DNA of 64,000 nt. It comes from an uncultured Gemmatimonadales bacterium (GTDB lineage Bacteria > Gemmatimonadota > Gemmatimonadetes > Gemmatimonadales > GWC2-71-9). How positions within the stretch are numbered: the first letter of the stretch is position 1; every line of letters starts with the position of its first letter. The notes under the pieces are model-generated. The model was not told where the DNA came from and ran no database searches. It worked only from the letters and a program-made list of their open reading frames with translations. The stretch covers positions 256,001-320,000 of the forward strand of contig CAWCFX010000004.1 in the NCBI GenBank assembly GCA_963795085.1. The letters are read 5' to 3'. Positions 33,327-47,535 of this stretch are shown piece after piece. The translations under genes were made by a program, and so were the position numbers.

Positions 33327-34216
33327 GCCGGACGCTCCCGGGGGACGACGACCTGGAGCGCGCCGGGATGAATCGCGTAGTGCAGCGGCGGTTTGAGAAT
33401 GGTGACCTCGCCATCCAGGGAGATCCGCAGGCGGCGGTGCCGGGCGTCGATCCAGCACTCGCTGGTGCGGAAGGCATCGAAGTCCTCCCCGGGCCGGACC
33501 TGGCCGAGCAGGGCCCGAATCGAAAACCAGATGAGACGGTAGCGCCCCTGGGCGCGGGGGATGTAAATGCAGAGCTGGCCCTGGTCCAGGGTCTCGCGGG
33601 CGGGCAGCCGTACCCCGTCAAAGAGATATTCGTTGTTCCCCACGAAGACCGCCGACGTCCGCCGGAGGACTTCCTGATCCTCGATGCTGACCTTGATGCC
33701 GAGCCGCTCGTAGTGGGCCAGCGCCTTGAGGGTAGCCCAGATGGCGGCAGGCCACTTGGCCAGGCCGTCCCGCTGCTTGAGCTCCCGGAGCCGGACGATC
33801 GAAGGATAGAGCCCCAGCCCGGAATTGTTGAGGAAGATACGATCGTTCACCTGGGCGTAGTCCACGCTCGCCAGGTTCCCCGCGGTGAGCACTTCGATGG
33901 CGGATTCGATTTCGAGCGGAATCCCCAGGTCCTTGGCGAAGTGGTTGAGGGTCCCCAGGGGAAGCACGCCGAGCGGCGTGCTGGAACCGGCGAGCGCGGC
34001 CGCGACCGAACTGATGGTGCCATCGCCGCCGCCGGCCACCACGATCCGGCTGCCCTCCTCCGCCGCGGCCCGGGCCAGGCCCGTGACATCAGATTCTCCG
34101 TCCATGAATACGATATCGGCGTCGTCGACGAGACTATGGATCAGGTGGGTCAGCCGGTCCCGGGCATCCTCGTCCTTGATACTGCCGGCGCGGCCGTTGA
34201 TCAGGAATCGAATCAT
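33323..34216 (-). CDS. Diacylglycerol kinase family (YegS-like) lipid kinase
   Basis: GGGDGT, LPLGTLNHFAKDL, FVGNN and SLDGE. Confidence 0.9.
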   Translation of the reverse strand: MIRFLINGRAGSIKDEDARDRLTHLIHSLVDDADIVFMDGESDVTGLARAAAEEGSRIVVAGGGDGTISSVAAALAGSSTPLGVLPLGTLNHFAKDLGIPLEIESAIEVLTAGNLASVDYAQVNDRIFLNNSGLGLYPSIVRLRELKQRDGLAKWPAAIWATLKALAHYERLGIKVSIEDQEVLRRTSAVFVGNNEYLFDGVRLPARETLDQGQLCIYIPRAQGRYRLIWFSIRALLGQVRPGEDFDAFRTSECWIDARHRRLRISLDGEVTILKPPLHYAIHPGALQVVVPRERPA

Positions 34217-34340
34217 AGGGGTGGAGTATCCATCAAACCGGCCGGGGAGGATGTAACCGGGGTTACAGGGACGCGGCCTCGATCCTTTTGGCCCGTAATG
34301 ATTTATTATTCCCGGCCTGCCTCCCCCACACCGGACGTGT

Positions 34341-35690
34341 ATGGGCGTGATCCACCTCCAGACCGAGATCCCCGGCCCGGCCAGCCGTGCCCTGCTGGCC
34401 CGGCGGGAGCGCGCCGTGTCGCGGGCGGTGCCGGCGACCACCCCGCTGGCCATCGTGCAGGCCGACGGTGCGATGGTGACCGACGCCGACGGCAACCGGC
34501 TTATTGATTTCGGGGGCGGGATCGGCACCCTTAACATCGGCCACCGGCATCCCGGGGTCATTGCCGCCATCCGGGAGCAACTGGACCGCTATCTCCACCT
34601 GGCCTTTCCGGTGTCGACCTACGAACCCTACGTGGCCCTGGCCGAGCGGATGAACCGGGTGACCCCGGGCGCCCACGAGAAACGCACCCTCTTTCTCAAC
34701 AGCGGGGCGGAAGCGGTGGAGAACGCGGTCAAGGCGGCCCGCTTCTTCACCGGGCGGCAGGCCATCGTCTGCTTCGACCATGCCTTTCACGGGCGCACCA
34801 ACCTGGCCCTCGGCCTGACAGCCAAGGTGATGCCCTACAAGAAGGGATTCGGCCCGTTCGCGCCGGAGATTTACCGGATTCCCTTTCCGTACTGCTACCG
34901 CTGCCCGGTGGCGGTACGGCGGCCGGCGGGAACCGGTGAGGCCTGCTGCCAGGCCAGCCGGACGTACCTGGACCAGCTGTTCGCCGGCGGGGTTGATCCG
35001 GGTTCGGTGGCGGCCATCGTCATGGAACTGGAACTGGGCGAGGGCGGGTTCGTGCCGGCGCCTGCCGAGTACGTCCGGGAACTGGCCGGGTTCGCGAAGG
35101 CGAACGGCATCCTGTTCATCGCCGACGAAATCCAGACCGGTTTCGGCCGCACCGGCAGGATGTTCGCGTCCGAACACTATGGCCTGGTGCCGGACCTCAT
35201 CGTCACCGCAAAATCGCTGGCGGGCGGGTTGCCGCTGGCCGCGGTGACCGGCCGCGCCGACATCCTTGATGCGCCGCAGGTCGGCGGCCTCGGCGGCACT
35301 TACGGCGGTAATCCCCTGTCCTGCGCGGCGGCGATCGCCGTGCTCGACGCGATGGAATCGGAGCAGATTACCGAGCGGGGCGCCCGGGCAGGCCAGCGGA
35401 TCCGGGAGCGGTTCCAGCGCTGGGCGGCCACTGATCCCGGTATCGGCGACGTCCGGGGCCTCGGCGCAATGATGGCGCTGGAACTGGTGCGCGACCCGGT
35501 CACCCGGGAACCGGACAAGGAACGCACCGGCCGGGTGCTTACCGAAGCACTGTCGCGAGGCGTGATCCTCCTCTCGGCCGGGACCTTTGGCAACGTGATC
35601 CGGGTGCTGGTGCCCCTCACCGTGAGCGACGACATCCTGGAGGAAGGCCTGGCGGTCATGCAGCAGGCGCTGGAGGCCACGCGGGGATGA
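34341..35690 (+). CDS. gabT: 4-aminobutyrate aminotransferase (class III PLP enzyme)
   Basis: IDFGGGIG, NSGAEAVENAVK, AFHGRT, DEIQTGFGRTG, AKSLAGG and GGTYGGNP. Confidence 0.9.
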   Translation: MGVIHLQTEIPGPASRALLARRERAVSRAVPATTPLAIVQADGAMVTDADGNRLIDFGGGIGTLNIGHRHPGVIAAIREQLDRYLHLAFPVSTYEPYVALAERMNRVTPGAHEKRTLFLNSGAEAVENAVKAARFFTGRQAIVCFDHAFHGRTNLALGLTAKVMPYKKGFGPFAPEIYRIPFPYCYRCPVAVRRPAGTGEACCQASRTYLDQLFAGGVDPGSVAAIVMELELGEGGFVPAPAEYVRELAGFAKANGILFIADEIQTGFGRTGRMFASEHYGLVPDLIVTAKSLAGGLPLAAVTGRADILDAPQVGGLGGTYGGNPLSCAAAIAVLDAMESEQITERGARAGQRIRERFQRWAATDPGIGDVRGLGAMMALELVRDPVTREPDKERTGRVLTEALSRGVILLSAGTFGNVIRVLVPLTVSDDILEEGLAVMQQALEATRG

Positions 35691-36550
35691 AGAAGCTCCG
35701 GTTCTGGCACTACCTCAAGGCGGCCTTCAACGCACGGCCCTTCGGCATGCTGGTGCCGCCCAACTGGATCGGGCTGGCGCTGTTCGGCCTGCTGGGACTG
35801 ATGAACCCCGGCTTCTGGGTAATCGGGGCGGGACTGGAGCTGGGATACCTGGGCGTGCTGATCACCAGCGGCCGTTTCCAGCGCGCGGTCGCCGCGCGGC
35901 ACAACTCGGCCACAACCGACCAATGGGGCGGCCGGGTGGAGGAACTGGTGGGCCAGCTCAGCGAAGCCGACCAGCGGAAATACGTCGCCCTGCTGGCCCG
36001 CTGCCGCTCCATCCTCGAGCAGCAGGGCCAGGGCGCGGAAACGAGCCTGGTCCAGGGCCTGGAAAGCCAGAACACCAGCCTCAGCCGGCTGGCCTGGCTC
36101 TATCTCCGGCTGCTGCTGATGCGCCGGGCTATCGACAAGGTGCTGGTGGACGACGGCGACCCGGGGAACCGGCACCTTTCCGATCGGATCACCACGCTGG
36201 AAAAGCGGCTGGCCGACGAATCGATCGGCGAAGACCTGCGCCGGAGCCTGGGCGGTCAACTGGCGATCCTGCAGCAGCGGATGGCCCAGCGCACCGAAGG
36301 CGCGGAGAAGATGGCCTTCCTCGACGCCGAGCTGACCCGGATCCATGAGCAGGTGGAACTGATCCGGGAACAGGCGGTGCTGTCCACCGACCCGGACCTC
36401 CTGTCGCAGCGCATTGACGAGATCACGACGACGCTGGGCGGTACCTCCCAGTGGATCCGCGACCAGCAGCAGGTGTACGGCGTCCTGCAGGACCTGGCCG
36501 CCGAGCCTCCACTCCTACCGCTCCGATCCCGGGGCAAAGCGAGCCAGTGA
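35687..36550 (+). CDS. Membrane-anchored coiled-coil protein (2 N-terminal TM segments)
   Basis: Two hydrophobic segments followed by long heptad-rich helices. ATGA overlap with gabT and GTGA overlap with the AAA gene. Confidence 0.8.
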   Translation: MKKLRFWHYLKAAFNARPFGMLVPPNWIGLALFGLLGLMNPGFWVIGAGLELGYLGVLITSGRFQRAVAARHNSATTDQWGGRVEELVGQLSEADQRKYVALLARCRSILEQQGQGAETSLVQGLESQNTSLSRLAWLYLRLLLMRRAIDKVLVDDGDPGNRHLSDRITTLEKRLADESIGEDLRRSLGGQLAILQQRMAQRTEGAEKMAFLDAELTRIHEQVELIREQAVLSTDPDLLSQRIDEITTTLGGTSQWIRDQQQVYGVLQDLAAEPPLLPLRSRGKASQ

Positions 36551-38298
36551 CCACTCCGCCGCTTCCCGCGGGCGCTCCGAACGGGACCGCGCTGCCGCCC
36601 TGGGCCGCCGAAATGCGGGACCTGTTCCGGTCCGGCTCGGTGGCGCAGTTCATCGTGCACGGCAACATCTTCGATGTGGTTCCGGCGGGCGGCAAGTTGT
36701 ATCCGCTCAAGCGGTTCATGGAAGAAGTGATGTTCGAGGTGTACGACGTGGTGCTGACCTACGACCGGGGCCGGGGTATTCGCGCCGCCCGGGGCGGCGA
36801 GGACTGGGGCGACTGGCTCAAGGGCGCCGTCGGGATGGATGGCAGCATGCTGGCCCAGCTCCGGGAGCCGGGCCCGGCGCTGGAACTGCTCGACCGGTAC
36901 CTGCTCAGGTCGCTCAACCTCCAGGCGCTCAAAGGCGGCGCCAGCGGCGCGCCCCGGATCGCGGTGGTCATCGATTTCGCCGAGTTCGTGGTGCCCCGGG
37001 GAGACGCGCTGGCACTGGGAGGGCCGTTCAGCGCCAACGTCGTGAAGACCCTGGGCTGGGCCAACGATCCGGCGGTGCTGCAGTCGAACATCATCACCGT
37101 GCTGCTCACCGAGGAGGCGGGGGATCTCAATGAGCTGGTCATGGAGAATCCCCACCAGGCCACCCTGCGCATTCCGCTCCCGGGCGAAGCCGACATGCTG
37201 GAGTACGTGAACACGCTGGCCGCCACCCAGTTTCCGGAACTGGCCGCGAAGTCGGAGGTCCCGCTGGAGGTGCTGGCCCGGCGGCTCACCGGGTTGAGCC
37301 GGATCGGCGCTAGGACAGTGATCGCCCTGGCCCTGCGCAACCACCGCACGATTACGGCGGCCTGGCTGGCCCAGATGAAGAAACAAATGATCGAACGGGA
37401 GTGCCAGGGCCTGCTCGATTTCGTGGAGTCGCCGTTCACCCTGGATCATGTGGCCGGCCACGAGCCGGTCAAGGTCTGGCTCCGGGAGGATACCCTGCTA
37501 CTCAAGCGGGGCGCTCTCCATGCGCTGCCCATGGGGTACCTGATCACCGGCCGGATCGGGACCGGCAAGACCTTCCTGGTGCAGGCCTGGGCCGGGGAGC
37601 TGGGGATCCCCTGCGTGGTCTTCAAGAACTTTCGCGACCGCTGGGTGGGGGCCACCGAATCCAACCTGGAAAAGATCTTCGCGGTCCTCCGGGCGCTGGG
37701 CCAGGTCGTCGTTTTCGTGGACGAGGCCGATCAGGCGGCCGGCAAGCGGGAGGGCGGCGACGGGGACAGCGGGCTCTCCGGCCGGGTCTATTCCATGCTG
37801 GCCAAGGAGATGTCGGACACCCGGAACCGGGGGCGGATCATCTGGGTCTTCGCGACATCGCGCCCCGACCTGCTGGAGGTGGATCTCAAGCGGCAGGGCC
37901 GGCTCGACGTCCATATCCCGCTCTTCCCGCCCCAGACCCGGGACGAACGGCGTGCCCTGCTGCTCGCGGTCGCCCGCAAGCTCAAGGTCCCGGTGACGGA
38001 GGCTGACCTGCCGCCGCTGCCGGAGAACCAGGACCTGGGCGGCAACGAACTGGAAGGGATCCTGGTGCGGGCGCTCCGGGTCCTTGAGCTGGCCCCGGAG
38101 CCGCGGCCGCCGCTCAAGGACATCCTGGCCCAGGTGTTCAGCGAGGTGCGGCCCAGCGCCCATACCCGGAAACTGGAGTACATGGACCTCGTCGCGGTGA
38201 AGGAATGCACCGACGCCCGCTTCCTCCCCCTTCGCTACCGCGACATGGCGCCGGAGGAAATCGAGCGGCAGATTGATGAACTCCGGCGGTTTATCTGA
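36547..38298 (+). CDS. Classical-clade AAA+ ATPase with probable degenerate N-terminal AAA-like domain
   Basis: Walker A GRIGTGKT, pore loop RWVGATE, Walker B VVFVDEAD, sensor-1 FATSRPD and Arg fingers KRQGRLD. N-terminal IAVVIDFAE resembles a decayed Walker B. Confidence 0.9.
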   Translation: MTTPPLPAGAPNGTALPPWAAEMRDLFRSGSVAQFIVHGNIFDVVPAGGKLYPLKRFMEEVMFEVYDVVLTYDRGRGIRAARGGEDWGDWLKGAVGMDGSMLAQLREPGPALELLDRYLLRSLNLQALKGGASGAPRIAVVIDFAEFVVPRGDALALGGPFSANVVKTLGWANDPAVLQSNIITVLLTEEAGDLNELVMENPHQATLRIPLPGEADMLEYVNTLAATQFPELAAKSEVPLEVLARRLTGLSRIGARTVIALALRNHRTITAAWLAQMKKQMIERECQGLLDFVESPFTLDHVAGHEPVKVWLREDTLLLKRGALHALPMGYLITGRIGTGKTFLVQAWAGELGIPCVVFKNFRDRWVGATESNLEKIFAVLRALGQVVVFVDEADQAAGKREGGDGDSGLSGRVYSMLAKEMSDTRNRGRIIWVFATSRPDLLEVDLKRQGRLDVHIPLFPPQTRDERRALLLAVARKLKVPVTEADLPPLPENQDLGGNELEGILVRALRVLELAPEPRPPLKDILAQVFSEVRPSAHTRKLEYMDLVAVKECTDARFLPLRYRDMAPEEIERQIDELRRFI

Positions 38299-38356
38299 GG
38301 GGGCCGCCGCCCCCGGTCCACCCGTTTGCCCTTCTTAGCTCACAGGAGACTCTCTG

Positions 38357-39097
38357 ATGGCAATTTTCTCGAGGATCGGGCGCCTTTTCCGGGGCTTTGT
38401 CAGCCTGTTCATCAGCGGCATCGAGGAGCAGAACCCCGAGGCGCTGATGGAGGCGGCGAAACAGGATTTCCGCCAGAAGATGGTCCAGTACAACCTGGCC
38501 CTGGCCCGGATGGGGGGCGTGGCCGAGCGGCTCAAGAACCAGGTGAAGGGCAAGGTGATCCGGATCGGCGAGCTGGAGCGGCGGGTGATGGCCAATCACC
38601 AGGCCGGGAACCTCGAACTGGCGGGCAGCCTGGCCCGGGAACTCCAGGAACTCAAGACCGATGTCACGACCGATACTGACGAACTGAAGGAAACCGAGGA
38701 GGCGTACCAGGCCAACCTCCGGCAGGCCAAGGTGGCCCAGAAAGATTTCGAGGACAAGATCCGCCGGCTGGATAAGCAGCTCTCCCAGGTCAAGATCAAG
38801 GAAGCGCAGGCCGAGGCTGCGGCGGCCCTGGGGAACGCGGCCTTCAAAGTCGGCGATCTGGGCGATACGATGAAAACGGTCGAGGATGCGCTGCAGAAGC
38901 GGTACGAGGTCTCGGCCGGCAAGGCCCGCCTCGCGAAGGACCTGGTGGACATGGACCGGGTGCAGGAGAAAGAGGGCGAGCGTAAGGCGCTGGAACAGGC
39001 AGCCCTGGCCGACTTCCTGGCCTCCCAGGGCATCCAGGCCAGCGGGACCGCGGCGCCCCAGCCGACCGAGAAAGAGATCGGGCCGAAGGGAAGCTGA
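38357..39097 (+). CDS. pspA: PspA/IM30/Vipp1 family protein (ESCRT-III superfamily)
   Basis: Amphipathic N-terminal helix MAIFSRIGRLFRGFVSLFISGIE, then NPE and a long coiled-coil hairpin; 246 aa; RBS AGGAG. Confidence 0.85.
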   Translation: MAIFSRIGRLFRGFVSLFISGIEEQNPEALMEAAKQDFRQKMVQYNLALARMGGVAERLKNQVKGKVIRIGELERRVMANHQAGNLELAGSLARELQELKTDVTTDTDELKETEEAYQANLRQAKVAQKDFEDKIRRLDKQLSQVKIKEAQAEAAAALGNAAFKVGDLGDTMKTVEDALQKRYEVSAGKARLAKDLVDMDRVQEKEGERKALEQAALADFLASQGIQASGTAAPQPTEKEIGPKGS

Positions 39098-39158
39098 CGG
39101 GATGTCAGTCCGCTGATGTCAGATCGCAGAGTGAAACCATCCACGCCAGGAGCCTCCT

Positions 39159-40805
39159 GTGGCCGGTGAACCGCGGGTCACCCCGTTTGGCAAGCTGATC
39201 TCCCTTCTCCTCGTGCTCGGTGTAGTGGCGGTGGGGATCTACATGGTCAAGGGCAAGAGCGGGGGGTCTTCGTCCGGCGAGCGCGAGGAGAGCGGGCCCG
39301 CCGAAGTCGCGCAGCTGCAGGTGGAGGTGCCGCGGCTGGCGCCCCCGGCCGCCCACCAGCTCCAGGACAAGACCGTCCCCATCGAAATCAGCGAGTATGC
39401 CGGCTATGCCGGCCTGATCGCGGCCAACGGCGGCCTGGCGCCCAACGAGAACTCGGTCTTCTACCGGAACGGCGGGTTCAAGGTCCGGCTCACGGTGAGC
39501 GAGGAAGAGAGCTGGTCGGCGCTCAACTCGGGCGCCCTCGCCGGCTCGGTCACGACGGTGGACGTGCTGGCCGTCTATGGCCGCCAGTTCCAGGTCACGG
39601 TGCCGGCCCAGATCGGATACTCGCGCGGCGCCGACGGGCTGGTGGTCCGCAGCGAGATCGGTCGGGTCAACGCCCTCCGCGGCAAGGTGATCGCCGCGGC
39701 CCAGTTTACCGAGGTCGATTTCTTCATCCGCTACCTGGCCCAGGAGGCCGGGCTGGGCGTCAATGCGCTGCCCAGCCTGGACGCAACGCCGGATCCCACC
39801 CGGATCAACCTGGTTTACACCGAGGACGGCTTCAGCGCGGGCGACCTCTTCCTTCAGGACCTCACCTCGGGCGCCAACCGGCTGGCGGGCTGCGTCACCT
39901 GGGAGCCCAAGACCTCCGAAGTGGTAGAACGGAGCGGGGGGCAGGCCAGGGTCCTCACCACCAACAAGAACCTGCTGATCGTCGCCGACATCCTGGTGCT
40001 GAACCGCGGGTTCGCCGACCAGAACCCCCAGATTGTCGCCGGATTGGTCCGGGGACTGCTGGAAGGGAACCGCATGGTGCGGGATGACCCGGAAGCCCAC
40101 CTGGATGTGATTGCCCGCGCCTTCAAGTGGAGCCGGGAGGATGCCCGGAGCGAACTGGCCAAGGTCCACCTGTCCAACCTGCCGGAGAACCTGGCATTCT
40201 TCAGCGGAGCCATCGATGCGGCAGGCAGCTTCGGCGGTATTTACCAGTCGGCGGTGCTGGCCTATGGCTCCGGACTGATCAAGGACCCGGTGGACGCGGA
40301 GCGCTTCATGGACCTCGCCGCGCTCAACGCGGCGAAACAGTCCGGCGCCTTTGCCGAGCAGGCGGTCGCCATCGCGCCGATCCGGTCGGGAACCCGGGGC
40401 ACCGTCGAGACCGACCCGCTCCTGAGCAAGGACATCCGGTTCCTCTTTCAGCCCAACTCGTCGGTCCTCGACCTGGAGAACCAGGACAACCTGGCCAATC
40501 TGGACGCCATCAAGCGGCTGCTGCAGGTGAGCCCGGGATCCACCATCCTGCTCCGGGGCCATGTGGACAATGCCCTGGTCGCCCAGTTCCGGCAGCAGGG
40601 CGGCGAGTCCTTCGTGCGGCAGATGGCGCTCAAGGCGGTGGAACTGAGCAAGAACCGCGCGGCGGAGATCCGCCGGGTGCTCACCGAGCGGCTCCGGGTG
40701 GATCCCAAACGGCTGGAAGTAGTGGGCCGCGGCTGGGAAGAGCCAGCCGGCACCGACTCGGAGCAGAACCGGCGGGTCGAAGTGCAGTGGTTCACGGTCG
40801 AGTAG
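39159..40805 (+). CDS. Membrane-anchored substrate-binding protein (NMT1/SsuA-like) fused to a C-terminal OmpA-like peptidoglycan-binding domain
   Basis: N-terminal TM anchor; SRGADGLV, VTWEP and IVADILV in the SBP region; OmpA motifs RGHVDN, LSKNRA, GRGWEEP and NRRVEV. Confidence 0.85.
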   Translation: MAGEPRVTPFGKLISLLLVLGVVAVGIYMVKGKSGGSSSGEREESGPAEVAQLQVEVPRLAPPAAHQLQDKTVPIEISEYAGYAGLIAANGGLAPNENSVFYRNGGFKVRLTVSEEESWSALNSGALAGSVTTVDVLAVYGRQFQVTVPAQIGYSRGADGLVVRSEIGRVNALRGKVIAAAQFTEVDFFIRYLAQEAGLGVNALPSLDATPDPTRINLVYTEDGFSAGDLFLQDLTSGANRLAGCVTWEPKTSEVVERSGGQARVLTTNKNLLIVADILVLNRGFADQNPQIVAGLVRGLLEGNRMVRDDPEAHLDVIARAFKWSREDARSELAKVHLSNLPENLAFFSGAIDAAGSFGGIYQSAVLAYGSGLIKDPVDAERFMDLAALNAAKQSGAFAEQAVAIAPIRSGTRGTVETDPLLSKDIRFLFQPNSSVLDLENQDNLANLDAIKRLLQVSPGSTILLRGHVDNALVAQFRQQGGESFVRQMALKAVELSKNRAAEIRRVLTERLRVDPKRLEVVGRGWEEPAGTDSEQNRRVEVQWFTVE

Positions 40806-40819
40806 CGGGTGCCCGGTCC

Positions 40820-41190
40820 TGGCGGTCGCCCTCGTAAGCGCGTTGGAGCACCCGCGGACATCGTGATTGATCTCCGCCACCGCACTCACGGCCGATCCGG
40901 TGGGTGATCCGGTTGCCCTTCCGTTCGCCTCCGGTTGAGACCAGACGTCCCACCGGTTTCACGCCGCGTAGACAGAGACCCAGGCCACCCGGGCCTGGGT
41001 GGCCGGCTTCACCCGGGCAAAGACCCGGCGGCGGTACAGGGGCACGAGGGTTTTTACCGGCGACATGGTGACATCGGGCCCCAGCCCCAGGGCGACCGTC
41101 AGCAATGCATCGAGGATCGGCCGGAGCGCGGCCTCCTTTCCCGAGAACATCGCCTCTACCCGGGCGCGTCGAGGAGATACCGGGCCGCAT
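40820..41190 (-). pseudogene. Frameshifted remnant of a DUF5655-like protein gene
   Basis: One plausible protein can be read only by switching frame about four times: YLLDAPG / VEAMFSGKEAALRPILDALL...KTLVPLYRRRVFARVKPATQARV / LGLCLRGVKPVGRLVSTGGERKGNRITHRIG / VSAVAEINHDVR / VLQRAYEGD. Confidence 0.7.
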
Positions 41191-41299
41191 CCGCCGCGGT
41201 GCCCATCCGCCGAATGCCGGGATGCAGGGTGTACGGGTAAACAGGATCCATGCCGTCTCGCTGGATGATGTGTGCGCCTCCCCCGTCGGAGAGGACCGC

Positions 41300-42571
41300 G
41301 TGGCTTCCATCTGGCTCAAGGATATCGCCGCTACGGAGGAATCCGTGCCGCCCCTGCCGGCCCGCGCCGATGTGGTGGTGATCGGCGGCGGCTATACCGG
41401 CGTGGCCGCCGCGCTGGCGCTCGCCGCAGCGGGAGCGAGCGTAACGGTGCTGGACCGGGAGGCGATGGGCTTTGGGGCCAGCACCCGGAACGGGGGGTTC
41501 GTGCTTCCCGGGTTCAAGCGGGAGTACTCCGCGCTGCGGCGCGCCTGGGGCCAGGACGCGGCCCGGCGGCTCTTCCTGGAGTCCCTGGAATCCATCGTCT
41601 CGCTCGAGTCGCTCATCGCGGCAGAGTCCGTGGATTGCGATTTCCGGCGGGTGGGCCATATCACGCTCGCCGAAACGGCCGGCCAGCTACGGTCGCTCGA
41701 TACGGAGCGCACACTGCTCGCCGGTTCAGCCGGCCATGCCACGCACCTGTTGGAATCATCCGACCTGGGCCAGGAGATCGGGTCGCCGCGCTACCTCGGC
41801 GGGCTCCTCGATCCGGCGGCCGGTTCGCTGCACCCGGCCCGGTTGTTTGCCGGGCTGCTCCGGGCGGCGGTGCGGCGGGGGGCGGTCGCGCTGGCTCGAA
41901 CCGAGGCCACCCGGATCGAAGGGACTCCCGGCAAGTTCGTGGTCCATACAAGTCGCGGCCCGATTCCCGGCGCGCACGTGCTGGTCGCCACCAACGGGTA
42001 CAGCGGCCCGGTCCACCGGGGGTTTCGCCGCCGGGTGGTCCCCGTGGGCAGCCATATCATTGCCACCGCGCCGCTGGCCCCGGAGCTGGCCCGGGATCTC
42101 ATTCCACGCCAGCGCGTGCTGAGCGACAGCCGCCACCTGCTGCACTACTTCCGAATGTCGTACGATGGCCGGCTGATCTTCGGCGGCCGGGCGTCCTTCC
42201 GCACGGCGGGGGGAGAGTCGGACCCGGTGGCGGCCGCCGTCCTTCGCGAGGACATGGTGTCGGTGTTTCCCCAGCTTCACGGCTGTCCGGTCGAACGGAC
42301 CTGGTCGGGGAACGTGGCCTTTACCCGCGACCGGATGCCTCACCTGGGCCGGCTGGACGGGGTATATGCGGCGGGCGGGTATTGCGGACACGGGGTCGCC
42401 ATGGCCATATACCTTGGCACCCGGGCCGGGGAGCACCTTGCCCGCGGCGCTGCGCTTCCTTTCCTGAGCACCCTGAGTTTCCCGGCGGTGCCGCTCTACA
42501 CCGGCCGGCCCTGGTTTCTTCCCCTGGCCGGTGCCTGGTACCGGCTGCTGGATTGGACGGCGCGCCGCTGA
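41300..42571 (+). CDS. FAD-dependent oxidoreductase, DAO family (PuuB gamma-glutamylputrescine oxidase-like)
   Basis: DVVVIGGGYTG, GASTRNGG, LVATNGY and GYCGHGVA. GTG 41300 follows GGAGAGG. Confidence 0.85.
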   Translation: MASIWLKDIAATEESVPPLPARADVVVIGGGYTGVAAALALAAAGASVTVLDREAMGFGASTRNGGFVLPGFKREYSALRRAWGQDAARRLFLESLESIVSLESLIAAESVDCDFRRVGHITLAETAGQLRSLDTERTLLAGSAGHATHLLESSDLGQEIGSPRYLGGLLDPAAGSLHPARLFAGLLRAAVRRGAVALARTEATRIEGTPGKFVVHTSRGPIPGAHVLVATNGYSGPVHRGFRRRVVPVGSHIIATAPLAPELARDLIPRQRVLSDSRHLLHYFRMSYDGRLIFGGRASFRTAGGESDPVAAAVLREDMVSVFPQLHGCPVERTWSGNVAFTRDRMPHLGRLDGVYAAGGYCGHGVAMAIYLGTRAGEHLARGAALPFLSTLSFPAVPLYTGRPWFLPLAGAWYRLLDWTARR

Positions 42572-42604
42572 GAGCGGCACCAGGCCAACTCGATCGGGGA
42601 CATC

Positions 42605-43747
42605 ATGAGCCCACGGCAGGAAGCCAGCGATCTGGTCCACGCGCTCGAGAGCGGCGCCATTACCCGGCGCGCATTCGTGCTGCGGGCCGCGGCGCTGGGC
42701 CTCAGCCTGGGGACTATCGGCCTGGTCCTCGGCGCCTGCCGGGGCAAGGCCGAGCCGCCCGCCGCCGAGGCGGACCTGGGACCCATCGGCACCGCACTCA
42801 GCATCTACAACTGGTCGGACTATATCGCGAAAGAAGCCATCACCGGCTTCGAGAAGGAGTTCGGGGTCAGGGTCTCCTACAACACGTACGAAAGCAACGA
42901 GGAACTGGCCGCCAAGCTGCAGACCGGCATCTCGCCCTATGACCTGGCGGTGCCCTCCGGTTACCTGGTGCCCGCGCTGGCGGCGGCCGGCCTCCTCGCC
43001 CCGCTCAACCGCCAGTACCTCACCAACTGGGACAATATCTCGCCCCTGTTCCTTGACCTGGGCAGCGACCCGGGGAACCGGTACTCGGTGCCCTGGCAGT
43101 GGGGCACGACCGGGGTGGCCTACCGGAGCGACAAGCTGGCCGCACCCCCGGCCAGCTGGGGCGTTTTCCAGGATCCCCGCTATCGGCGGCGGATGACGAT
43201 GATGGACGAGGGGCGCGAAGTGATCGGGGCCTGGCTCCGCTACCGGGGCCATTCCGTGAACAGCGTGAGCGGGCCGGAACTCGACGCGGCACGCGCCGAT
43301 GGCCTGGCGGCCGCCGGTCACCTGGCGGGCTTCGTATCGGGACCGGTCAAGGACCGCCTGGTCTCCGGCGAAATCTGGGTCGCCCAGCTCTGGAACGGCG
43401 ACACCACCCAGGCCCGGGTCCGCGAACCGGCGATCGCTTATGCCCTGCCCGCGGAGGGCGGCACGATCTGGACCGATTCCCTGGTGGTCCCCCGGTCCGC
43501 GCCCCACAAGCGGGCCGCGCACGAGTTCCTGAACTACATCCTGCGGCCCGACGTGGCCGCTTCCATTTCCAACGCCACCGGCTATGGATCCCCCAACGCG
43601 AAGGCGGTGCTGGACCAGCCGGTGCCTTTCCCCGCGCCGGATGAACTCTCCCGCCTGGAATACCAGGCCGACCTGGGTGAGAAGTCCTATCTCTGGGACC
43701 TCATCTGGTCGGACATCCGGGCCCACGGAGCCGGCTCACTCTCCTGA
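42605..43747 (+). CDS. Spermidine/putrescine-binding protein (PotD/PotF-like), Tat lipoprotein
   Basis: TRRAFV and LGAC lipobox; IYNWSDYI, YESNEE, DPGNRYSVPWQWGTTG and EGGTIWTD. Confidence 0.9.
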   Translation: MSPRQEASDLVHALESGAITRRAFVLRAAALGLSLGTIGLVLGACRGKAEPPAAEADLGPIGTALSIYNWSDYIAKEAITGFEKEFGVRVSYNTYESNEELAAKLQTGISPYDLAVPSGYLVPALAAAGLLAPLNRQYLTNWDNISPLFLDLGSDPGNRYSVPWQWGTTGVAYRSDKLAAPPASWGVFQDPRYRRRMTMMDEGREVIGAWLRYRGHSVNSVSGPELDAARADGLAAAGHLAGFVSGPVKDRLVSGEIWVAQLWNGDTTQARVREPAIAYALPAEGGTIWTDSLVVPRSAPHKRAAHEFLNYILRPDVAASISNATGYGSPNAKAVLDQPVPFPAPDELSRLEYQADLGEKSYLWDLIWSDIRAHGAGSLS

Positions 43748-43761
43748 ACGGACCCCCGCCC

Positions 43762-45102
<1,341 letters not shown>

Positions 45103-45108
<6 letters not shown>

Positions 45109-45181: not shown

Positions 45182-46003
45182 TCAGTCTCCGCTGGCCCAG
45201 CTCAGCGTCACCCCGAACCAGAGCTTGACGCTTTCGTCCGGCTTGCTGGGTTTGTTGAACTTGGTGTACTCATCGCCGCTGAACTGGACGTGCAGGGCCG
45301 GGCTGATCGCGAACGGTCCGGCCATGAACTCGGTGGAGGCGGAGAGGTCCACGTGGGTGAGCCCGTTGCCGGAGAAGTTGGCCGATTCCGACGGGTCGCT
45401 GTCGTTGACGCCCTGGCCGGCGCTGAGCCCGGCCAGCGCGCCGAGGGAGAGGGAGACGGATTCCGAGAGGGGAATCCCGTATCCGATACTCCCCTCGAGA
45501 TACAGCCCCTTGATCTTGTCCACGTCGTAGTACGCGGCAACCTGCGGCGAGAGGACGTGAGCCAGGCCCAGCCGGGCGTAGATTTCCAGGGTATTGGCAT
45601 CGCTGGTCAGGCCGGGGGGATCGTTGGGGTAGAGGTACCCGACGGCGCCCAGCCCGAGCTCCACGTCCCCGAAGGCATGGGTGTATTCAATCCAGGGATC
45701 GAACTCGCTGACATCGGGACCCCCCTCCCCGCCGCCCAGGCTGACCTCGTCGGCGCCATCGTACTTGCCCAACTCCACGTTGCTCCATCCGCCGAGCGTG
45801 AAGGCGCCGTTCTCCCCCACGGGAAAGGACAGCCAGAGATCCGGCTGGATCACCGGCTTGCTGGTGAGGGTGAGCCCGCGCCAGACATACGCGCTGAATA
45901 CGCCTACGTCAATGCCGACCGATACCTGGGCGGATGCGGCCGGCGCGCCCAGCATCAGGGCGGCCGCACTCAACATCAGGCTACACCGGGAGGAGCGGAG
46001 CAT
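45182..46003 (-). CDS. Putative outer-membrane beta-barrel protein (TorF/Gcw_chp-like)
   Basis: Signal peptide, SAYVWRG, PVIQP, WSN and GYLYP; alternating beta-strand pattern. Confidence 0.75.
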   Translation of the reverse strand: MLRSSRCSLMLSAAALMLGAPAASAQVSVGIDVGVFSAYVWRGLTLTSKPVIQPDLWLSFPVGENGAFTLGGWSNVELGKYDGADEVSLGGGEGGPDVSEFDPWIEYTHAFGDVELGLGAVGYLYPNDPPGLTSDANTLEIYARLGLAHVLSPQVAAYYDVDKIKGLYLEGSIGYGIPLSESVSLSLGALAGLSAGQGVNDSDPSESANFSGNGLTHVDLSASTEFMAGPFAISPALHVQFSGDEYTKFNKPSKPDESVKLWFGVTLSWASGD

Positions 46004-46127: not shown

Positions 46128-46170
46128 TGAATGCGGAGTCCCCTGACCCCTGGCCCATTGACGTGGAACC

Positions 46171-47535
46171 ATGATCCCTGTTCGGCCTGCCAATCCGTTT
46201 AGCGCTCTTTTCACCACCTATTTTGGCCAACTGGTGGTGCTGTTGCGCCGGCAACCGGATGATGTAAGCGCCCAGAAAGGTGCCTTGCGGAGCGCCATGG
46301 CGGTCCTCCGGCATGGGCCGGTGCGGATCGAGGCTGGCATCGAGTACTCCGACGTCCTGGACGACGCCACCCTCAAAGGCCGGCTCCTGGCCCGGTATGT
46401 GGACTACATCGAGTGCGGGGCCGATTCGCCCGCCGCCGAGGTGCTGGAACTGGCCCGGGCGCTGGCCGCCGATACGGGACCGATTCCCCAGAGCGTGTTG
46501 ACCCGGGTCGAACTGGTCACCATCCCCGGGATGGCCCGGGTTTCCGACGCGGTGGCCGCGCCTCCCACCCCGCCATCGGCCGGACGGCAGCGAACCATGT
46601 CCGGGCCGGTGGGCAACGCGGAGCAGCTGGCAGCCGCGCTCGAGCGGGCGATCACGACCGGGTTCTGGATGGAGGCCGTCCATGCTGCCCAGGCCCTGAT
46701 CCGGCTCACCCCTCAGTTTCCGGAGCACGAACAGCGCGCCCACCTGCTCGCCCTGCGGCGCGCTTTCACCCGGCCGATCCTCGAACAATTCATCGCCTTT
46801 GCCATGCGGGCCACCGAAGAACAGGCCCGGGTGGCCGAAATCCTCAGTTACGGGGGACCGGAAGCCATCGAGCTGATGGTGGACCAGGTTCGGGGTGGCG
46901 AGGTGATCGGTCCCCGAAAGTTCCTCTATGACGTGCTGGTGGCCACGCCGGCCTCGCTGCCCCTGCTGCTGCCGCTGCTGGAAAGTCCGGTGTGGTATGA
47001 AGTGCGGCACGCCGCCGACCTGGTGAGCCGGCTGGGCGCGGCAGAAGCGATTGACCCGCTTCGGCGGGCCCTCAAGCATCCGGACCCCCGGGTGCGCCAG
47101 GCGGTGGTCGAGGCGCTGGGCCGGTTCCCCGGCAAGGAAGTGGTAGAACCGATTCGGCGAACCCTGGGAGACCCCGACCCGGGTCCCCGAGCGAGTGCCG
47201 CGTTCGCCCTGGCCCAGCGGCATTCGCCCGGCTTGGCGCTGCCGATCCTGGTCGCGCTGGAATCAGAGAAGGACCCGGATGCGTGGAACGCGCTGGTCGA
47301 GGCGCTGGCCCGGATTGACTCCCCGGAGGCGGTCTCCTCGCTCGCGGGGATGGCCCTGGGCAAGCGTTCGCTGCTCCGACCGGGCCGGTCCATGGGGCAG
47401 CGGCTGGAGATTATCCGGGCGCTGGCCCGGGCGGGGACGCCCGGCGCGCGCGGTGCGCTGGAGAGAATTGCGGCGGAGGGAACGGCCCAGATCCAGAGCG
47501 CGGCGGCTGCCGCGCTCCAGGATCCGCAGCGCTAG
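46171..47535 (+). CDS. HEAT-repeat domain protein
   Basis: C-terminal repeats WYEVRHAA, HPDPRVRQAVVEALG and DPDPGPRASAAFALA. Confidence 0.8.
   Translation: MIPVRPANPFSALFTTYFGQLVVLLRRQPDDVSAQKGALRSAMAVLRHGPVRIEAGIEYSDVLDDATLKGRLLARYVDYIECGADSPAAEVLELARALAADTGPIPQSVLTRVELVTIPGMARVSDAVAAPPTPPSAGRQRTMSGPVGNAEQLAAALERAITTGFWMEAVHAAQALIRLTPQFPEHEQRAHLLALRRAFTRPILEQFIAFAMRATEEQARVAEILSYGGPEAIELMVDQVRGGEVIGPRKFLYDVLVATPASLPLLLPLLESPVWYEVRHAADLVSRLGAAEAIDPLRRALKHPDPRVRQAVVEALGRFPGKEVVEPIRRTLGDPDPGPRASAAFALAQRHSPGLALPILVALESEKDPDAWNALVEALARIDSPEAVSSLAGMALGKRSLLRPGRSMGQRLEIIRALARAGTPGARGALERIAAEGTAQIQSAAAAALQDPQR

Follow-up and report, generated by a model that had tools for sequence, protein, structure and literature searches.

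The closest described system comes from comparative genomics: Ravi et al. 2024 (mSystems, PMC11237479) list, in Text S2.2 and Table S3, an operon class that combines PspA, an inactive AAA plus a classical AAA, a transmembrane (TM) protein, and a PBPB-OmpA protein. The portions of that paper that treat these operons label the TM protein "Snf7," give OGG56892.1 from Candidatus Handelsmanbacteria as an example, describe an ABC permease and ABC ATPase as optional members of "longer operons" only, and include a Clostridium example of a PspA-AAA dyad without the TM protein (A1 in what follows). They also propose a connection with solute transport and already draw, as a prediction, the ESCRT-III/Vps4 analogy, i.e., ATP-dependent membrane remodeling like that of Snf7/Vps4. 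This cluster type and the Vps4 analogy are therefore not new, having been in print since 2024 on the basis of comparative genomics, and the remark in a preliminary description of our locus that surveys of the Psp system had noted such neighborhoods is borne out by exactly this class and analogy. With respect to the polymer itself, the passages of Junglas et al. 2024 on PspA rods refer to an unknown activity that would disassemble the rods, "in analogy to Vps4," and to an intrinsic weak ATPase activity of PspA proteins that also alters rod diameter, and a 2025 review states that a Vps4-like ATPase appears to be absent in bacteria. In the literature, we did not find an experiment on this module.

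Within the 64,000-nucleotide stretch of DNA analyzed here (the window), we observe the operon class of Ravi et al. in a compact form that lacks the ABC permease and ABC ATPase and comprises the following features.

35687..36550, + strand: gene 1, encoding A1 (P0001, 287 aa), a membrane-hairpin and helical-bundle protein (GC3 0.88, AF2 model)
35765..35866, + strand: membrane hairpin of gene 1, residues 27-60 (hydropathy and model helices)
36547..38298, + strand: tandem AAA ATPase (P0006, 583 aa), GTG start (ORF and homologue coverage)
36589..37446, + strand: degenerate N-terminal AAA domain, residues about 15-300 (hhalign of N half against C half)
37540..37920, + strand: active classical AAA module (PF00004, 84.2 bits, residues 332-458)
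38357..39097, + strand: divergent PspA/Vipp1 (P0003, 246 aa; PF04012, Vipp1 profile match, AF2/Foldseek)
38369-38425, + strand: PspA alpha0, N-terminal amphipathic helix (AF2 model)
39071-39085, + strand: PspA C-terminal KEIGP motif, after a variable linker (conservation)
39159..40805, + strand: membrane-anchored SBP-OmpA protein (P0004, 548 aa; hydropathy, profiles, PF00691)
about 39186-39248, + strand: N-terminal TM anchor of the SBP-OmpA protein (hydropathy)
40443-40778, + strand: C-terminal OmpA-like peptidoglycan-binding domain of the SBP-OmpA protein (PF00691, 44.7 bits)

The four co-oriented genes of 35687-40805 are all strongly coding, with GC at third codon positions of 0.86-0.89 versus 0.65-0.79 in the overlapping alternative frames. 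Gene 1 stops with TGA (36548-36550), and the GTG that starts the AAA gene is at 36547, indicating that the GTGA overlap between them, which the preliminary description had read along with the shared orientation of the four genes, is real. The ATG of gene 1 overlaps, as ATGA, the stop codon of a GABA aminotransferase gene that precedes it, and the pspA-like gene lies 58 bases 3' of the AAA stop, in a gene order of A1-AAA-PspA-SBP with housekeeping catabolic genes on both flanks. No ABC permease or ABC ATPase gene was found in the window flanks, and the best permease match of the genome (93% complete) is 30% identical (76 bits) and lies on a different contig. The best explanation is that the four belong to a single operon, of the class described by Ravi et al. 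Support from a promoter, a terminator, or RNA did not emerge for the locus, a point against this reading.

The search returned 542 relatives, of which the best 80 loci, from about a dozen phyla, were analyzed. All four families occur on one strand in 49 of these 80 loci, and in 36 of the 50 that have at least 5 kb on both sides, indicating that the linkage of the four genes is not due to chance; every match is on the AAA strand. A1 immediately precedes the AAA gene in 64/80 loci, a PspA-like gene is found in 62/80, and an SBP-OmpA gene is found in 53/80 (E ≤ 1e-20). A cognate ABC permease (39/80) and ABC ATPase (40/80) are always on the same strand, and 16/80 loci, window included, carry the compact variant of four genes without ABC genes. 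The two main AAA clades, split at a support of 100, differ in gene order, with the four genes staying linked. The preliminary description had made its reading depend on the four genes being kept together in other genomes; this bacterial four-gene cluster is real and widely conserved. Its distribution is patchy (13/201 genomes sampled in the phylum), and those listed AAA and PspA homologues that carry names belong to Gemmatimonadota, Acidobacteriota, and Planctomycetota. Smaller arrangements are also observed: PspA-AAA dyads without A1 (5/80), an AAA gene without any partner nearby (8/80, 6 of them with full flanks), and permease-ABC-A1-AAA without PspA in the fetched flanks (4 loci, 2 with full flanks), the last two indicating that the ATPase can exist away from pspA.

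In the second half of the ATPase, we locate Walker A (GRIGTGKT, residues 335-342, 37549-37572), Walker B (VVFVDE, residues 388-393, 37708-37725), the pore loop RWVG (residues 365-368, 37639-37650, read off the translation), and the SRH arginine fingers RQGR (residues 449-452, 37891-37902), as had been proposed for the pore loop, Walker B, and fingers. The catalytic motifs and the pore loop are preserved intact and without variation, with K341, D392, E393, R449, and R452 unchanged across 46 diverse homologues. Having Walker A/B, an aromatic-hydrophobic-Gly pore loop 1, and two Arg fingers, the protein falls in the classical AAA clade (PF00004). The sensor-1 region reads ATSRP (37852-37866), with Ser, not the more common Asn, at the sensor-1 position. 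Homologues of 560-584 aa show 94-100% coverage and 74-90% identity among the matches listed. The N half (residues 1-327) has no Pfam family, even at E ≤ 5, and aligns with the C half in the family alignment (hhalign, probability 89.7%, E = 1.8e-6, 198 columns in register). It has HGN at the Walker A site and IDFAE at the Walker B site; a Walker A motif is missing, as is the Glu of Walker B, and this half is a catalytically dead AAA paralogue.

The earlier comparison of the module with ESCRT-III and Vps4 holds for the classical AAA clade but not for a Vps4-like architecture. A Vps4 orthologue is ruled out by the missing MIT domain, by the score of the CdvC equivalog NF041006 (39.8 bits versus a cut-off of 650, below the CDC48, FtsH, and PAN models of NCBIfam at 68, 62, and 53 bits, CdvC rounding to 40), and by the nearest solved relatives, the best PDB matches being D2 domains of VAT/Cdc48 (117-127 bits). 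Assignment to the Cdc48/VAT subfamily TIGR01243 was likewise rejected (68 bits versus a cut-off of 802, a dead first ring, and no Cdc48-type N domain detected with Pfam). Overall, the similarity of the ATPase to Vps4 does not exceed its similarity to other classical AAA proteins, which we count against the mechanism considered below.

The AF2 model of A1 is all-helical (pLDDT 81), with two helices (27-39 and 41-60) that meet in an N-P-G turn to give a short membrane hairpin, after which comes a helical bundle. Kyte-Doolittle hydropathy of at least 1.6 is confined to the hairpin stretches. Of the "2-TM coiled-coil protein" first described, the two membrane helices are therefore retained, but the plain coiled coil is replaced by hairpin and bundle. 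Basic residues on either side of the hairpin suggest that both termini are inside, and the bundle would probably be cytoplasmic. P25, N26, W27, P41, G42, and F43 are invariant, and a C-terminal DLxxEPP motif is conserved. The homologues number more than 2,200; A1 itself is without a Pfam family, and no Pfam domain is found in its homologues among the 120 matches listed. The "Snf7" label given to this protein by Ravi et al. was not reproduced in our family, profile, or fold comparisons: Snf7 (PF03357) has no match for P0001, nor is it among the 25 most-matched of 77 families for 37 members (E ≤ 10), the A1 and PspA family profiles align with a probability of 0.2% (hhalign), and no ESCRT-III chain is among the listed Foldseek/VIA matches of the A1 model, in a comparison where helical bundles match unspecifically. 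The nearest named cluster in a language-model Atlas is the Rv2743c family (score 0.87), a lead only.

The third protein scores 36.5 bits with PF04012 (cut-off, 33.9), residues 3-216 covering profile positions 2-210 of 220, and because this margin is small, we sought additional support. Its family profile matches Vipp1 chains in PDB (6.2e-7), and Foldseek ranks 1-10 are all Vipp1/PspA (probability 0.87-1.00) at weak E-values (1.8e-3 to 0.13). In the AF2 model (helices 5-23, 27-82, and 86-196; pLDDT 82-96 over residues 31-140), alpha0 is followed by a long alpha1-alpha2/3 hairpin, the PspA/Vipp1 layout, and E. coli PspA 1-144 superimposes with an rmsd of 3.0 over 125 columns. The PspA/IM30 identity proposed at the outset, together with the PspA-type fold on which it had been staked, is hence upheld. 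In the C-terminal tail, G242 is invariant and K239 and P243 are nearly so. Listed homologues are 74-90% identical, and identity at this level among the matches listed for both AAA and PspA points to strong constraint on the two proteins. A second, canonical PspA is encoded elsewhere in the genome (159 bits) and is 27% identical to the module copy, indicating that the latter is a specialized paralogue. PspB and PspC models (PF06667, PF04024) match nothing in the whole genome (93% complete), and all 17 sigma-54-activator matches (PF00158) lie outside the window, in agreement with the initial observation that pspB, pspC, and pspF are missing from it. On the same grounds, a canonical Psp regulon (PspF-PspABC) was rejected as an identity for the locus.

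The fourth protein was initially described as a membrane-anchored binding protein with an OmpA domain, and each part is recovered. Its hydropathy maximum (2.42) falls at residues 12-30, the OmpA domain matches PF00691, and the binding domain, with a weak SsuA-family match (TIGR01728, 48.9 bits), is TauA/SsuA-like, of the NitT/TauT class. The family profile matches TauA (3.7e-10), SsuA (5.6e-9), and OmpA-like domains (down to 2.7e-15) in PDB. Identity between the two clades is about 30%.

We consider the best explanation, and a moderately probable one, to be an operon of the class of Ravi et al. with ATP-driven turnover of PspA polymers, docking by A1, and SBP-OmpA as tether or sensor. The remodeling of PspA polymers at the expense of ATP would be its best-supported mechanism, and we infer that the ATPase acts on PspA, that A1 recruits PspA, and that SBP-OmpA senses a ligand. 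As its family suggests, PspA would polymerize on the cytoplasmic face of the inner membrane via the amphipathic alpha0. Hairpin-anchored A1 in the same membrane may be the docking or nucleation site for PspA, the ATPase, or both, a role suggested by strict adjacency and translational coupling. The ATPase would form a hexamer, with the degenerate N-terminal ring as a platform on which the hexamer assembles and partners bind and the active ring, with its intact motifs, threading and extracting PspA subunits, perhaps via the conserved KEIGP tail, so that the polymer would be turned over as ESCRT-III is by Vps4. Since the ATPase has no MIT domain, it would have to recognize PspA, if at all, in another way, and since the intrinsic weak ATPase of PspA changes rod diameter, an external motor is not strictly required. 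Through its two domains, SBP-OmpA could connect this membrane site with peptidoglycan and with a small molecule in the periplasm, of the class bound by sulfonate/taurine-binding proteins. Where the operon is larger, it would feed a dedicated ABC importer; here, with no cognate importer found, it is more probably a wall tether or sensor.

The substrate of the ATPase could also be A1 or other membrane proteins, such as a linked transporter, in which case it would be a Cdc48/Msp1-style extractase or assembly chaperone, with PspA merely stabilizing the membrane at the extraction site. A1 and AAA are the tightest pair (directly adjacent in 64/80 loci, with a 4-base overlap in the window), the 4 permease-ABC-A1-AAA loci have no PspA in their flanks, and among solved structures the closest are those of VAT/Cdc48, which are general unfoldases. 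However, PspA linkage (62/80) is almost as frequent as A1 linkage, and PspA-AAA dyads do without A1 both in 5/80 loci and in the case from Clostridium given by Ravi et al., and we regard this alternative as rather unlikely. We are more skeptical that the module is in essence an ABC importer of the NitT/TauT type, tethered to the wall and taking up a sulfonate- or osmolyte-like solute, with PspA, A1, and the ATPase serving in assembly or quality control and the window representing a reduced remnant. The same-strand permease (39/80) and ABC ATPase (40/80), the TauA and SsuA profile matches, and the solute-transport link suggested by Ravi et al. all fit such a system, which is nevertheless distinctly improbable, as 16/80 loci, the window included, keep the four genes without ABC genes, the best permease match in the 93%-complete genome is just 30% identical, and the most conserved parts are PspA and AAA rather than the transporter genes (74-90% identity versus about 30% for SBP-OmpA between clades).

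An anti-phage defense cassette around an IetA-like AAA ATPase is highly unlikely. The patchy distribution of the module (13/201 genomes) would suit such a cassette, as would weak matches of the AAA module to IetA in PADLOC (best, 40.6 bits, E = 5e-11) and to NCBIfam IteA (22.8 bits), but these matches are limited to the generic AAA core, A1 and SBP-OmpA have no PADLOC match, and PspA has only two coiled-coil-level matches near E = 0.002. Furthermore, an IetS-type protease partner is missing from the cluster, the flanks consist of housekeeping catabolic genes, and 74-90% identity across phyla is unlike fast-evolving defense genes. The IetAS system was accordingly rejected, the other three operon proteins having no notable defense-family match.

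The preferred reading, turnover of PspA polymers, can be set against the known systems as follows. In the operon descriptions of Ravi et al., the same four families and domain architectures occur, the dead N-terminal AAA included, and the window has the dead and active AAA beside pspA, A1 directly upstream, and the SBP-OmpA fusion; it differs in its gene order (A1-AAA-PspA-SBP) and in missing the ABC permease and ATPase. Like canonical PspF-PspABC and actinobacterial PspA-PspM (Rv2743c), the module pairs PspA with a small membrane protein; unlike canonical Psp, it sits in a genome without PspB/PspC matches and a window without an enhancer-binding ATPase, and unlike PspF, its ATPase is of the classical AAA rather than the NtrC clade and carries no DNA-binding domain. 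The type II unfoldases VAT/Cdc48/p97 give the best matches of the active module and share the two-AAA-domain layout, whereas the first AAA of the module is dead and no Cdc48-type N domain was detected with Pfam. With ESCRT-III/Vps4/CdvC, the module shares a gene of the polymer-former superfamily beside a classical AAA with an aromatic pore loop. A membrane-anchored partner also occurs in both, CdvA in the Cdv system and A1 in the module. Unlike Vps4/CdvC, the module ATPase has no MIT domain and is a tandem protein whose first ring is dead, and its 60 best PDB matches do not include Vps4; the module PspA belongs to the PspA/Vipp1 branch of bacteria rather than to Snf7. If the module does resemble ESCRT-III/Vps4 in function, the resemblance would be convergent.

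We observe that the four co-oriented genes proposed at 35687-40805 in the preliminary description are all present and carry a strong coding signal, with GC3 values of 0.86-0.89 against 0.65-0.79 in overlapping alternative frames.

The module and its surroundings in the window
34341-35690: GABA aminotransferase gene, upstream of the module, its stop overlapping the start of gene 1
35687-36550, + strand: gene 1 (A1), membrane-hairpin protein of 287 aa
36547-38298, + strand: gene 2, tandem AAA ATPase of 583 aa
38357-39097, + strand: gene 3, the module PspA
39159-40805, + strand: gene 4, SBP-OmpA protein
41105-45108: downstream run of a DAO-type FAD oxidoreductase, a polyamine-type SBP (SBP_bac_8) and a second class-III aminotransferase
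45182-46003, - strand: Gcw_chp family protein, downstream
46162-47535, + strand: HEAT-repeat protein, downstream

The GTGA overlap described for the first two genes is real, because the TGA of gene 1 occupies 36548-36550 and the GTG of gene 2 starts at 36547; the ATG of gene 1 itself overlaps the stop of the aminotransferase gene. Genes 3 and 4 follow gaps of 58 and 61 bases, with AGGAG preceding the start codon in each. A promoter and terminator scan of 34000-41300 returned a single promoter-like site and a single terminator-like site, each on the minus strand, a yield no higher than in shuffled sequence. A sigma-54 consensus motif gave 16 matches in the window versus 22 expected, none of them on the + strand upstream of the operon. 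Among indexed sequencing runs, none of RNA was listed as containing the sequence, and the best DNA run shared 0.33 of the words.

With respect to the conservation of this linkage, a scan of one genome per species with a 12-row ATPase alignment yielded 542 relatives of the ATPase, and the loci of the best 80 of these were analyzed with family HMMs on six-frame ORFs. Every family match in the 80 loci lies on the ATPase strand. A1 is found directly upstream of the ATPase in 64/80 loci (4 of the other 16 are cut off at that end), a PspA-like gene in 62/80 and an SBP-OmpA gene (E ≤ 1e-20) in 53/80. All four families co-occur in 49/80 loci; of the 50 loci that have 5 kb or more of flank on each side, 36 carry all four. 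The four genes are thus conserved together, as the interpretation in the preliminary description requires.

Gene orders among the 80 related loci
A1-AAA-PspA-SBP (the order of the window): 16/80
PspA-SBP-permease-ABC-A1-AAA: 16/80
Permease-ABC-A1-AAA-X225-PspA-SBP: 8/80
PspA-AAA dyads: 5/80
ATPase alone: 8/80, 6 with full flanks

The cognate ABC permease is present in 39/80 loci and the cognate ABC ATPase in 40/80 (Pfam assignments checked on examples), and 20/80 loci carry an extra protein of ~225 aa, X225, between the ATPase and PspA. X225 reaches the cut-off of no Pfam family (DUF3584 matches weakly) and is unrelated to A1 or PspA by hhalign. In one Planctomycetota locus (L029, 7809-10661), a 951-aa ORF without a Pfam family lies between the ATPase and X225.

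Examples of X225 in related loci
L016: 6219-6905
L022: 7683-8366
L034: 5884-6573
L042: 7722-8387

The module is flanked in the window by genes of GABA and polyamine catabolism, and a link of the module to these pathways was considered. The flanking aminotransferase and oxidoreductase recur in 0/80 related loci; this context is therefore local, and the link was rejected. The Gcw_chp and HEAT-repeat genes farther downstream are without visible link to the module.

A FastTree phylogeny of 75 ATPase sequences (the window plus 74 loci, 6 loci having been dropped for want of a single ORF covering at least 480 profile positions), built without an outgroup and with support values that are local only, splits into two clades, at 100* support, that match the two gene orders. 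The window's starred set comprises 24 rows, namely the window, 19 Acidobacteriota, 3 Gemmatimonadota and 1 Myxococcota, and the 74 loci on the tree span 11 named phyla, with 16 loci having no phylum on record. Within the window's phylum, the ATPase occurs in 13 of the 201 genomes sampled, all in one family (12/96 there, 0/104 elsewhere), and its identities inside that family (72-76%) are no higher than to other phyla. This patchy pattern suggests some horizontal spread. Among the matches listed for genes 1-3, the named homologues that come closest belong to Gemmatimonadota MAGs. We take the tight synteny across phyla to be established, together with the four protein architectures and the dead first ring, the last as read from alignment.

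A single PF00004 module is found in the ATPase, and its Walker A, Walker B, W-V-G pore loop and two SRH arginines are all intact. These catalytic and pore-loop motifs are invariant in 46 diverse relatives, bearing out the aromatic pore loop, Walker B and arginine fingers noted previously. Judging from these intact motifs, the second AAA ring is predicted to be catalytically competent. Profile-profile comparison of the N half with the C half of the family alignment gave a probability of 89.7% (E 1.8e-6, 198 columns in register), with IDFAE aligned on Walker B and PLP on the matching turn, indicating that the N half is a dead AAA paralogue, in agreement with Ravi et al. Four longer relatives of 818-856 aa (P0374, P0382, P0387 and P0395), whose sequences were read by eye, have a second degenerate N-terminal AAA copy before the active module. 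An A1-ATPase fusion had been considered as an explanation of the 820-856 aa relatives and was rejected, the extension being this second degenerate domain.

Among solved structures, the active module comes closest to the D2 rings of VAT and Cdc48/p97 (117-127 bits), and its 60 best PDB matches include no Vps4. Furthermore, the NCBIfam models for CDC48 (68 bits), FtsH (62 bits) and PAN (53 bits) outscore CdvC (40 bits), all of them far under their cut-offs. By these comparisons the ATPase appears Cdc48/VAT-like with a dead first ring, and not specifically Vps4-like. The usual sensor-1 residue in classical AAA proteins is Asn; at residues 436-440 (window 37852-37866) the ATPase has Ser (ATSRP), and the position varies among the relatives listed, with TNRP in P0382 and P0438 and TARP in P0374.

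The module PspA passes the PspA_IM30 threshold narrowly (36.5 bits versus 33.9), comparison of its family profile with cyanobacterial Vipp1 chains gives 6.2e-7, and its AF2 model consists of alpha0 and a long hairpin, for which Foldseek ranks 1-10 are all Vipp1 or PspA structures with weak E-values (1.8e-3 upward). The product of 38357-39097 thus has the PspA fold that had been proposed for it. At its C terminus, a variable linker leads to KEIGP, a motif that is almost invariant. In a 1:1 complex prediction of the full-length ATPase (46 rows) with PspA (27 rows), run without controls, both runs scored 0.01, where the mark is 0.32; this outcome is counted neither way.

The reported lack of pspB, pspC and pspF in the window extends, for the first two, to the genome: PspB and PspC models found nothing in the 93%-complete assembly, and the 17 matches to the sigma-54-activator model fall elsewhere in the genome than in the window. 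A second, canonical PspA (PF04012, 159 bits), 27% identical to the module PspA, is encoded on contig 6 beside a CesT_Tir_1 protein, a pair that corresponds to the CesT/Tir-PspA dyad also described by Ravi et al.

The canonical PspA pair on contig 6 (locus L004)
1396-2157, - strand: second PspA
2160-2582, - strand: adjoining CesT_Tir_1 protein (91 bits)

Gene 4 encodes an N-terminal TM anchor and an OmpA domain with a binding-protein domain between them. The binding-protein domain is weak by single-sequence search, with no match to PDB sequences, and becomes clear with a 17-row family profile (TauA 3.7e-10, SsuA 5.6e-9). The module permease lacks a close counterpart in this genome (best match 30% identical), and X225 was not found in it with one query, which suggests that in the compact variant, which lacks the ABC permease and ABC ATPase, the SBP-OmpA protein acts as a tether or sensor rather than in uptake.

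Gene 1 matched no Pfam or NCBIfam family; it has >2200 homologues, with a Pfam domain in 0 of the 120 matches listed. It is hydrophobic only at a hairpin, whose two short helices (27-39 and 41-60) meet at an invariant N-P-G turn and which has basic residues on both sides; the rest of the protein is modelled confidently as an all-helical bundle (AF2 pLDDT 81, pTM 0.70). Foldseek with this model found no PDB structure at E ≤ 0.001, its top rows being BAR and other helical bundles; the best VIA matches (Z 9.3 in the wide search, Z 11.0 in the second look) are designed or unrelated helical repeats, at Z scores within the tool's unspecific range for helical proteins. The family profile has no PDB sequence match below E 0.01 and aligns to the PspA family by hhalign at a probability of 0.2%. 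No Snf7 match came up for gene 1 or in the 25 most-matched families of its 37 relatives, and the published 'Snf7' label of A1 was not reproduced with standard tools. In the language-model Atlas, the nearest named cluster is the Rv2743c family, that is PspM, the mycobacterial PspA partner (182/256 features shared); at 0.87, this match is below the 0.9 that the tool calls reliable and is a lead only.

With respect to mechanism, PspA would polymerize at the membrane, A1 would anchor or nucleate the assembly, an ATPase hexamer would thread PspA, possibly engaged via the KEIGP tail, and so turn the polymer over, and the SBP-OmpA protein would link this site both to the cell wall and to a solute in the periplasm. 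Against this stand the loci that have the ATPase without PspA nearby, the affinities of the ATPase, which are not specifically with Vps4, and the failure to reproduce the 'Snf7' identity of A1. We tentatively propose, as a reading that we rate somewhat below even, that the tandem ATPase is a dedicated disassembly and turnover motor for a bacterial ESCRT-III (PspA) polymer, recruited from Cdc48/VAT-like stock independently of Vps4, recognizing PspA by its KEIGP tail and kept at the membrane through the hairpin protein A1; the compact-variant SBP-OmpA protein, its transporter lost, would serve in the periplasm as a sensor tethered to the wall, positioning or triggering the machine. If true, this would be the first bacterial ESCRT-III/AAA machine and would overturn the statement, in a 2025 structural review (PMC7619361), that bacteria appear to lack a Vps4-like ATPase.

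It is now accepted that the ESCRT-III proteins of bacteria include PspA and Vipp1, and how their very stable polymers are disassembled in the cell is a live question. Junglas et al. 2024 (PMC11746142) report a weak intrinsic ATPase of PspA and speculate on disassembly by chaperones 'in analogy to Vps4'. The operon class is a concrete and widespread candidate for this step, and the module is of moderate interest because it makes bacterial ESCRT-III disassembly directly testable with purified proteins.

ESCRT systems with Vps4 are placed only in archaea and eukaryotes by Makarova et al. 2024, who also note that one type of archaeal ESCRT locus includes an SBP (ProX). Surveys of the kind mentioned in the preliminary description do exist: Ravi et al. 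2024 (PMC11237479) found PspA alongside a protein that has two AAA+ domains, of which the N-terminal one is inactive, as well as longer operons to which an ABC ATPase, a permease and a PBPB-OmpA protein are added; their proposal is that membranes are remodelled in an ATP-dependent way, which they liken to Snf7/Vps4. Credit for the idea is theirs, and the interpretation is already in print as a reasonable, unproven prediction. As had been anticipated, searches of the full-text literature turned up no experiments on operons of this class (subscription-only papers lie outside this search). To the work of Ravi et al. the window adds that the published 'Snf7' label of A1 was not reproduced with standard tools, that the four-gene core persists without the ABC transporter, and that the ATPase is, by its predicted affinities, Cdc48/VAT-like with a dead first ring and patchily distributed in its phylum. 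The module is not a new discovery; it adds one more member, of compact form, to an operon class that is already known and characterized only in silico. One published row of this class (OGG56892.1 in Table S3 of Ravi et al.) has the same gene order as the PspA-SBP-permease-ABC-A1-AAA arrangement found among the 80 related loci.
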